Below, piece after piece: positions 56,150-58,438 of a stretch of DNA of 58,438 bases. Under the pieces are notes generated by a model. The model saw nothing but the letters and a program-made list of their open reading frames with translations. It ran no database searches and was not told the DNA's origin. Each line of letters starts with the position of its first letter. The stretch's first letter is position 1. Made by a program: the position numbers and the translations under genes. The stretch comes from Parcubacteria bacterium C7867-006 (GTDB lineage Bacteria; Patescibacteriota; Minisyncoccia; Phycocordibacterales; DATDWN01). The DNA lies in the NCBI GenBank assembly GCA_001189155.1, contig LFCP01000007.1:1-58438 (forward strand), in the 5' to 3' direction.

Positions 56150-58438
56150 AATGGGAAATTTAAGAGCGTATGGTGGATGCCTTGACTCAAAATGGCGATG
56201 AAAGACGTAGCATGGCTGCGATAAGTTATATATGTCGTTGCTCTACGAATTACGTAGAGCGTGCACCCGGGGAAGTAAAACATTTCAGTACCCGGAGGAA
56301 TAGAAAACAATTGTTATTGCGCAAGTAGCGGCGAGCGAAAACGCAGAAGCCCAAACCACCCTTCTATCTTTGTTTGTGTCGCAAGACATAAGCGAGGATA
56401 GCGGGGTGGGGTTGTAAGGCAGGAACGTCATAATTTATTATGAGAGAAGTTACAAAATATTATGTTAGTTGAATGTGCTGGAAAGCACGACCCTAGAGGG
56501 TAATGGTCCCGTAAGCGAAAATATAATATCTTCTTTGTTCTTGTTCTTGAGTACTTCGAGACACGTGTGGCTCGGAGGAATCTGCCGGAACTAACCGGTA
56601 AGGCTAAATACATTTTGAGATCGATAGTGAACTAGTACCGTGAGGGAAAGGTGAAAAGAAGTCCGATAAGGACAGTGAAATTATCCGTCACGGCGTGCCT
56701 ATTGAAGAATGAGCCAACGAGTTGATGTATGCTGCACGACTAAGTCCTTTACCGGATGGAGTCAAAGGGAAACCGAGTGTGAATAGCGCGAATAAGTAGT
56801 ATGCATCAGACCCGAAGCCAGAGCGAGCTTGTCATGAGCAGGGTGAACTTCTGAGAAATCAGAAGGGAGGCCCGAACCCATATGCCGTGCAATACATTGG
56901 GATGACTTGTGATAAGAAGTGAAAAGCTAATCGAGCCTGGTAATAGCTGGTTCTCTCCGAAATAGCTTTTGGGCTAGCGTCAAATGTTCCCTTCTGGGGT
57001 AGAGCACTGGAAGGTCTCGACAGGGAGAAATCTCGCGAGACCTATCAAACTCCGAATACAGAAGATTAAAAGTTTGGCAGTTAGACGGCGGGGGCTAAGC
57101 TCCGTACGTCAAAAAGGAAACAGCCTAGATCTCTATTTAAGGTCCCTAAATCTACGTTAAGTGCGCTTAAGGTGGTGAAATTTCTCAGACACTGAGGAGG
57201 TTGGCTTAGAAGCAGCCATCCTTTAAAGATAGCGTAACAGCTCACTCAGTAAGAGATTTCGCGCCGCAAATAATCGGGGCTAAACGTAGTACCGAAACTG
57301 AGGATTTATTTCTTCTTCGGAAGAAATGAGTGGTAGGAGAGTATTCGTATCTGCTGTGAAGGCAAAGGGGTGACCCATGCTGGAGCGATGCGAAGTAAGA
57401 ATGTTGGCACAAGTAACCACAATACAGGTGAGATCCCTGTACGCCGAAAGACTGAGGTTTCCTATTCAATGTCAATCAGAGTAGGGTTAGTCGGGCCTAA
57501 GGCAATGACGAGAGTCGCAGCCGATGGACAGCTGGTTAATATTCCAGCACTTTTACACAATGCGATGGAAGGACGGAGTGCAGTATGTACAGCTCATTAT
57601 TGGATTTGAGTATGTGCTGTCAGAATGTCTTGTAGGTAAATCCGCAAGCTATCTTAAATGATAAATTCAAGCAGTATTTAAACCTGGCGATACGTCAAAG
57701 GGGATAGTACAAAGCGCGCTTCCAAGAAAATTTTCTAAGCTTAATTGTGTGAGATCCGTACCGTAAACCGACACAGGTAGTCAGGTCGAGTAGACCAAGG
57801 CGAACGAGTGAGAGATCCCCAAGGAACTCTGCAAAAAAGCAGCCGTAACTTCGGAATAAGGCTTGCCCACTTTATGTGGGCCGCAGCTAAAGTATCTCTG
57901 GCAACTGTTTATCAAAAACACAGCTCCCTGCGAACTCGCAAGAGGATGTATAGGGGGTGATGCCTGACCAATGCCAGAAGGTCAAATATGGTAGGAGAAT
58001 GTCGCAAGACGCTATCTTGACTATATAAGCCCTGGTGAATGTCGGCCGTAACTATAACGGTCCTAAGGTTGTGCGGACAATTTATTTTGCCCGCACAAGG
58101 ACTGGGGCCGTTAAAGGAATTGATAAACGAAATAACAATTAAAATCATTATAATCATTCAAAGCTGCCTCAGTACATAGCGATATGTGCGAGGTCCAAAA
58201 ATCATGGCTATATGCTGGTAAGTCTGCAATTTACAGACGATCAGCAGGGAAGTCCGAATTTATTCGGATCCCTCAGAGACCAAACGCCGTGCATCTCTAG
58301 TAGATGAAGATATGGTCCTTCGTATGCAATAGGAAACGAAAAGCGAAATTCCTTGTCGGGTAAGTTCCGACGTGCACGAATGGTATAATGACTGGAGAAC
58401 TGTCTCGGGGATTTGCTCGGTGAAAATACAATACCGGT
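56150..58438 (+). rRNA. rrl: 23S ribosomal RNA, 5' ~2.3 kb (truncated by the window end), interrupted by one insertion
   Basis: Colinear by eye with E. coli 23S. Matches include GGTGGATGCCTTG, AGTAGCGGCGAGCGAA, GGTTGGCTTAGAAGCAGCCATCCTTTAAAGA, ACCGACACAGGTAGTCAGGT, CTGTTTATCAAAAACACAG and GGCCGTAACTATAACGGTCCTAAGGT...AGCGAAATTCCTTGTCGGGTAAGTTCCGAC. The 5' end is approximate. Confidence 0.95.
58070..58341 (+). other. 272-nt ORF-less insertion (group I intron-like) in 23S rRNA at E. coli position 1931
   Basis: It splits the universally conserved CCTAAGGT|AGCGAAATTCC sequence. It contains AAGATATGGTCC, which resembles the group I J8/7-P7 consensus AAGAUAUAGUCC, plus candidate P8 (CATCT-CTAGT-AGATG) and P9 (TTCGT...ACGAA) hairpins. 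Confidence 0.7.

Follow-up and report, generated by a model that had tools for sequence, protein, structure and literature searches.

The window analysed here, a stretch of 58,438 nt, is the entire contig LFCP01000007.1 of Parcubacteria bacterium C7867-006, whose 674-kb genome is assembled in 8 contigs and holds a single copy of the 23S ribosomal RNA (rRNA) gene. This gene starts at position 56150 of the window and is cut by the contig end (58438) at model position 2054; its last third was not found anywhere in the assembly. The match to the 23S model RF02541 (56150–58438) is interrupted by exactly 272 nt, inserted between the end of the 5′ exon, GGUCCUAAGGU (U1931 = 58069), and the start of the 3′ exon, AGCGAAAUUCC (A1932 = 58342). 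As 58069 differs from 58341 and 58070 from 58342, these boundaries cannot be shifted by even one base, and the last base of the insert is therefore A58341, provided that the mature rRNA is canonical. The single intron-less genome of the host family (G042) has the canonical, uninterrupted GUCCUAAGGUAGCGAAAUUCCU. No open reading frame (ORF) of more than 46 amino acids overlaps the insert, nor does it encode a LAGLIDADG or other endonuclease ORF. An initial annotation, made from the letters of the window alone, had described a 272-nt split of conserved 23S sequence after U1931, an insert without an ORF and a last nucleotide A, all of which were borne out.

When the region was scanned alone against the Rfam group I model (Intron_gpI, RF00028), a search proposed in that annotation, it returned a significant match (43.6 bits, E-value 4.5e-10, span 58148–58332), albeit below the curated cut-off of 50 bits. 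Seven orthologous introns at the same site reached 74.7, 60.3, 59.1, 57.1, 52.4, 51.7 and 50.7 bits against the same cut-off. A structure model including pseudoknots was then counted on an alignment of 18 introns at this site (L1931) together with their exon flanks. From P1 to P9.0, 96.2% of 1281 cells held standard pairs, compared with 36–47% when partners were slid by 1–3 columns; 33 of the 72 model pairs were changed on both sides, and none of 500 shuffles matched the model on any of five measures. The intron and the elements of its body are as follows.

58070–58341, forward strand: the entire 272-nt intron, flanked by U1931 and A1932 of the 23S rRNA
58070–58097, forward strand: 5′-terminal hairpin, intron nt 1–7 with 22–28, beginning at the first intron base
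58172–58189, forward strand: P2 hairpin with a GNRA loop (GCGA, 58179–58182)
58203–58208 with 58286–58291, forward strand: P3, enclosing P4, P5, P6/P6a and the 5′ strand of P7 (covariation and Rfam alignment)
58214–58218 with 58241–58245, forward strand: P4 (covariation and Rfam alignment)
58222–58226 with 58234–58238, forward strand: P5 (covariation and Rfam alignment)
58246–58256 with 58265–58273, forward strand: P6/P6a (covariation and Rfam alignment)
58276 and 58278–58281, forward strand: 5′ strand of P7 (covariation and Rfam alignment)
G58278 with C58317, forward strand: guanosine-binding pair, with A58277 as the bulged A (Rfam alignment)
58292–58306, forward strand: P8 hairpin, both-side changes in four of five pairs
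58307–58318, forward strand: J8/7 (AAGAUAU, 58307–58313) and 3′ strand of P7 (GGUCC), together AAGAUAUGGUCC

Each of the helices P2, P3, P4, P5, P6, P7 and P8 contained at least one compensatory pair (one in the case of P7). Both-side changes affected all five tested pairs of the 5′-terminal hairpin and all seven pairs of P2, whose loop read GYRA in every aligned sequence. J8/7, the bulged A and the G-C pocket pair agreed base for base with the Rfam consensus; G58278 is what we take to be, from a column-by-column match of the numbering, the equivalent of Tetrahymena G264. The P8-like hairpin, the J8/7-P7-like AAGAUAUGGUCC and the terminal hairpin that had been noticed by eye in the initial annotation thus have their places in the model, at 58292–58306, 58307–58318 and 58319–58340, respectively. 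As judged from covariation and alignment, the insert is a complete ORF-less group I intron, its core comprising P3–P8 with the P3/P7 pseudoknot. On the strength of the sequence comparisons reported here, we consider it probable that this compact intron belongs to an L1931 lineage found across the candidate phyla radiation (CPR) and is spliced from the 23S precursor by two transesterifications.

Recognition of the splice sites would depend on pairings between the intron and both exons, which are listed here together with the pseudoknot helix that surrounds some of them.

58163–58169, forward strand: internal guide GCUGCCU, intron nt 94–100, immediately 5′ of P2
58066–58069 (AGGU) with 58166–58169 (GCCU), forward strand: P1, with a U58069·G58166 wobble at the 5′ splice site
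58342–58344 (AGC) with 58163–58165 (GCU), forward strand: P10, formed by the bases 5′ of the wobble G in the guide
58099–58103 (GGACU) with 58192–58196 (GGUCC), forward strand: Pk pseudoknot helix, covarying in three introns
58104–58113, forward strand: guide 1, pairing with 5′ exon positions 58055–58064 (E. coli 1917–1926, 3′ strand of helix 69)
58145–58159, forward strand: guide 2, pairing with 3′ exon positions 58378–58391 (E. coli about 1968–1981)

The internal guide is complementary to the joined exons (AGGU-AGC) and adjoins P2 on its 5′ side, as in canonical group I introns. Contrary to the earlier statement that no convincing P1 with a U:G wobble could be drawn, such a helix exists between 58066–58069 and 58166–58169; it had been missed because the guide lies ~95 nt into the intron, away from the 5′ end. 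All 18 sequences had P1 and P10 paired in 100% of cells; what little change there was fell on the intron side only and preserved the pairing. A long irregular hairpin previously considered as P1 (guide 1 plus a putative U1931·G58099 wobble, with a 3×3 internal loop) was dropped, as the canonical guide was found 5′ of P2 and GGACU covaries with the GGUCC at 58192–58196.

Two pairings suggested by RNAalifold compete with these assignments. In one, the base of P2 is formed by GCCU of the guide and an AGGU within the intron itself. This was rejected as the conserved state because the equivalent of G58193 is changed to A in three introns (G431, G125 and L099) with the guide unchanged. In these same introns the Pk helix reads GGAUU with AAUCC or GAUCC in place of GGACU/GGUCC, which is invariant elsewhere, suggesting P1 plus the Pk helix (58099–58103/58192–58196) as the conserved state. 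The other, between exon ACUAUA and UAUGGU of J8/7-P7, was discarded: its columns are all invariant and it conflicts with P7.

Guides 1 and 2, which we refer to as exon clamps, lie inside the loop that Pk closes. In two relatives (G044 and G043), the exon changes from AACGG to AAUCG and guide 1 from CUGUU to CGAUU, so that two pairs are altered on both sides. Guide 2 forms a helix of 14 bp with one bulged A, its target lying ~36 nt past the 3′ splice site. Here, a U or C in the intron at 58151 follows an A or G in the exon at 58385 (8 U-A, 9 C-G, 1 U·G and 1 register-shifted case over 19 loci). Along the intron, guide 2 is followed by the P10 strand and then the P1 strand, which is the canonical order of group I guides. 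Between P10 and the guide 2 helix, helices 70–71 may form a hairpin that draws both together. In this copy alone, AAGGAAUU (58114–58121), right after guide 1, is fully complementary to AAUUCCUU in the 3′ exon (58347–58354) and repeats the AGGAA motif seen in the terminal loop; the corresponding pairing, part of the minimum-energy fold, is not conserved in relatives and was left unused.

The clamps bear on whether the insert leaves the rRNA at all. A group I-derived RNA might have ceased to be excised and form an expansion segment of the mature 23S rRNA close to helices 69–71, and the fact that its last base is not G would fit such retention. Yet the guides covary with the 3′ strand of helix 69 and with 1968–1981, and permanent pairing would disrupt essential rRNA helices. 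The core, P1 with its U·G, P10 and the pocket are, moreover, conserved across deeply diverged hosts. All in all, we regard retention as unlikely.

At the 3′ end of the intron, the following two elements were assigned.

58319–58340, forward strand: P9.0 hairpin, UUCGU (58319–58323) with ACGAA (58336–58340), loop AGGAA (58331–58335)
58341, forward strand: last intron base (omega position), A

The hairpin directly follows the P7 strand, has a stem of 5 bp and leaves the single base A58341 after it. By position, it is P9.0, the helix presenting the last base to the pocket. Since MAFFT misaligned the UAGGU/ACCUA variants, the stem was counted directly among 42 distinct compact introns: 31 of these had all five pairs, in total 21 different versions of the stem sequence occurred, and the loop motif AGGA(A) was found in 40. 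This loop is complementary to UUCCU of the 3′ exon (58349–58353), a stretch that never varies, so that no covariation is seen. The terminal guanosine (omega-G), a near-universal feature of group I introns, is absent from the window's intron, A58341 standing in its place, and a terminal A is common to 24 related introns. With the 3′ end in place, the choice left by the initial annotation, between a minimal or degenerate group I intron and a different kind of insertion, can be narrowed. Given the significant Rfam score and the covarying core, the minimal ORF-less group I intron stands; "degenerate" does not, because the intron has kept P1 with U·G, P10, P3–P8, an intact G-C pocket and a 5-bp P9.0, all of them conserved. 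The conserved pairings between intron and exons speak against a different kind of insertion or a retained expansion segment.

The comparison with related CPR 23S genes suggested at the outset turned up a homologous insert in 20 of the host family's 62 further genomes, and all 18 inserts with both exon flanks readable occupied the same site. RF00028 matches were present in 47 of the 63 family genomes, with up to nine per genome (G003). The host's 16S gene (G000:C6:1241-2728) is located on another contig, unlinked to the 23S gene, and is free of insertions, its 1488 nt corresponding to 1533 model positions.

Further L1931 introns came from three sources: the order, species genomes scanned with a pattern, and a sample of the phylum. 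Among the compact CPR introns, the last base was A, G, C or U, in the following combinations with the pocket pair.

Pocket G-C, last base G: 38 introns
Pocket G-C, last base A: 24 introns
Pocket U-A, last base C: 5 introns
Pocket A-U, last base U: 1 intron (G002)

Within the compact CPR type, the last base thus tracked the pocket pair without exception; two apparent cases of G-C with U (L057 and L083) are introns at another site. The five omega-C introns with a U-A pocket (UCAGAUACC ... GGUAC), namely L101/L037 (G431), L040 (G157), L056, L069 and L109, are well diverged from one another, and their hosts are labelled Moranbacteria and other Patescibacteria. In a quick tree they formed one group (Shimodaira–Hasegawa-like approximate likelihood ratio test, SH-aLRT, 84), and A and G interchanged several times. 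The relative in G002 (L021:1423-2285) measures 863 nt, shares the site and combines an A-U pocket with a last base U. It encodes a LAGLIDADG_1 ORF (E-value 2.6e-20), and its Rfam scan gave no group I match at E 0.01. Covariation of the last base with the pocket argues that this base docks in P7 and that exon ligation, the second step, is under selection; without a second splicing step, as under retention in the rRNA, the covariation would have no purpose. Tentatively, we also raise the possibility that G has ceased to be obligatory as the last base in the CPR lineage while the pocket still reads this base, the 3′ site being set by P9.0, P10 and the clamps.

The association also speaks to where the intron ends. 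In the Rfam alignment omega-G is placed at G58332 in the terminal loop, where the match ends, and the G of the AGGA(A) motif is conserved in 40 of 42 relatives. Splicing after G58332 would keep 9 nt (58333–58341) in the mature rRNA. This 9-nt tail, however, varies and covaries with 58319–58323 and so behaves as intron, P10 uses AGC at 58342–58344 rather than the tail, and the intron-less allele contains no extra bases. In addition, a change of the pocket pair is accompanied by a change of the last base but leaves the loop motif as it is. A 3′ splice site at G58332 is accordingly highly improbable, and we take the intron to end at A58341.

Other L1931 introns differ more strongly from the compact type. 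Long representatives (~700 nt) with the same J8/7-P7 sequence (L046-L123) are common in metagenome-assembled genomes of Acidimicrobiia and other Actinomycetota and occur in Eremiobacterota, Armatimonadota, Chloroflexota, Acidobacteriota and others as well. All long endonuclease-bearing introns examined from Actinomycetota and other phyla end in G, and they have a short P9.0 and a separate P9 hairpin. The window's intron, in contrast, is 272 nt long and ORF-less, has a P2 with a GNRA loop and a flush 5-bp P9.0 only, and ends in A. At the opposite extreme, four L1931 introns (L047, L067, L071 and L081) of just 178–209 nt, ending in G, appear to be devoid of the whole P4–P6 domain, the P3 strand being followed almost immediately by J6/7-P7; their guide, GCUACCU or GCUACUU, gives U-A and not U·G at the 5′ splice site. 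In six loci (L006, L013, L014, L016, L020 and L021), the 23S exon is split again 12–25 nt downstream, after ...AGCGAAAUUCCU or ...GGGUA. P6 inserts of 100–300 nt with no recognised endonuclease gene were seen in L014 (G018), L019 (G043), L018 (G058) and L020 (G001), some of them containing internal repeats (e.g. AAAGUCCAUAAAGU twice in G043).

Parts of the stretch are contained in six metatranscriptomes, of which three, from three studies, were mapped as contigs together with one DNA run. Mismatch-free pieces of the host's variable 23S regions were recovered from each RNA run (57592–57702 in X15; 57400–57494 and 57668–57736 in X17; 57864–57938 in X16). None of the three yielded a contig over the intron interior (58100–58309), although non-coverage by contigs does not prove absence; the DNA run provided a 329-nt contig spanning the whole intron. 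Contigs joining 58069 to 58342 occurred in all three RNA runs, their shorter sides comprising 25–27 nt of universal sequence, and loose contig ends at 58342 belong to other organisms. Transcriptome mapping, another check put forward in the initial annotation, therefore produced RNA without contigs across the intron interior and joined contigs that are not host-specific: a hint, not proof, of intron removal in the host. For retention in the mature rRNA, the empty interior in runs that do hold host 23S pieces is a weak counterargument, and the lack of a host-specific spliced junction among the RNA contigs a point in its favour.

The same pattern could arise if the insert were excised, by the intron itself or by host RNases acting on its hairpins, with the ends left unligated. 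The resulting 23S rRNA would be fragmented, as with classical intervening sequences. This would explain the lack of intron contigs in RNA with no need for an omega-G, and cases of fragmented 23S rRNA have been described among bacteria with just one rRNA operon (PMC11270868). The ends of the insert, however, form separate local hairpins and not the long stem of RNase III-type intervening sequences, and a conserved P10 together with clamps that unite both exons makes sense for ligation only. Hence, we judge excision with no ligation to be less probable still than retention.

If the intron is spliced as we favour, exogenous guanosine would attack after U58069, and A58341 would subsequently occupy the pocket in lieu of omega-G. 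It would bind weakly there, which the long exon clamps, P10 and the flush P9.0 would offset. Ligation of the exons would yield the canonical GGU-AGCG. For as long as it is present, the intron would keep helix 69 and its neighbours unfolded, and splicing would consequently have to precede the assembly of domain IV.

Several observations weigh against this interpretation. In the Tetrahymena ribozyme, a G-to-A change at omega is reported to block exon ligation; efficient self-splicing of the window's intron is therefore not to be assumed, and a protein cofactor may be needed. P1 comprises just 4 bp and P10 just 3 bp, and neither can show both-side changes because the exon bases are invariant. Behind the association of pocket pair and last base stand about two independent events: the omega-C introns, which form one clade, and the single omega-U intron. 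The Rfam score remains 6.4 bits short of the curated cut-off, and the joined RNA contigs could stem from any bacterium, as their shorter sides are universally conserved. Finally, the Simkania intron at the same site was reported, according to the title of the paper, to remain unspliced, which would be in keeping with retention.

Insertions at position 1931 of CPR 23S rRNA have been catalogued as site 23IS7 by Tsurumaki et al. (2024, J Bacteriol; PMC11270868), and the window's intron shares with these the host group, the gene and the site. As far as the passages of that article considered here go, over half of the insertions were group-I-like and LAGLIDADG_1 genes were common at 1931, whereas the window's intron has no ORF; these passages make no mention of a non-G last base, a displaced internal guide or exon clamps. 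A review of bacterial introns does not treat omega. That the 1931 site hosts group I introns in Thermotoga and Simkania, as stated in the initial annotation, is confirmed by PMC1995217 (2007), which describes L1931 introns of Simkania, Thermotoga and Synechococcus as 654–700 nt in length, endonuclease-encoding and IC1-like with no P2. They have in common with the window's intron the insertion site and the ribozyme class, and the long L1931 introns of Actinomycetota and other phyla found here share its J8/7-P7 sequence.

Precedents also exist for the terminal A. A 23S intron of Coxiella burnetii, according to the title of a paper cited in PMC11270868, "lacks the canonical omegaG" (Raghavan et al. 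2007, J Bacteriol 189:6572). Like the present element, it is a group I intron of a bacterial 23S gene, located nearby in domain IV and devoid of a terminal G, and self-splicing has been reported for it. It is said to be Cbu.L1917, with A as its last base, and to belong to subgroup IB2; it differs in its site (1917), in its reportedly different subgroup and in being restricted to a single species. Michel and colleagues are said to have engineered, in 1989, a Tetrahymena pocket mutant, G264A:C311U, in which the P7 pair sets the bound base. In contrast to this laboratory mutant, the same pair has changed naturally among relatives of the window's intron, in step with the last base; the intron of the window has retained G-C. 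In hexacoral mitochondria, the group I intron ND5-717, which has A as its last base, undergoes splicing in vivo, but it resides in a protein gene, carries giant P8 insertions and undergoes back-splicing in corallimorpharians (PMC6545197).

Both CPR insertions at 1931 and A-ending group I introns (Coxiella and ND5-717) are hence already published, and the window's intron is an uncommon variant whose kind, site and terminal A all have precedents. In view of these published exceptions, we would file the element as group I in spite of the missing omega-G. The Pk helix, the guide, the exon clamps and, among relatives, the U-A/C group are what our analysis adds. For annotation, such rRNA inserts fall just under the Rfam cut-off, and their guide may be far from the 5′ splice site.

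With 272 nt, the intron offers a small natural test case for ribozyme work, complemented by relatives in which pocket and last base have changed together. If the last base is indeed read by the pocket, the window's intron would splice efficiently with a terminal A. Those of its relatives whose pocket pair has changed would then represent natural ribozymes in which the nucleoside site has been re-specified, and their first step might employ a non-guanosine cofactor. Textbooks treat the terminal G and the pocket that binds it as invariant features of group I catalysis. A natural A-ending lineage that is conserved, and that occupies the only 23S gene of an organism, would mean that there are other ways of ensuring the second splicing step; in the present case these seem to be the long P9.0, flush with the last base, and the unusually large extent of exon pairing.

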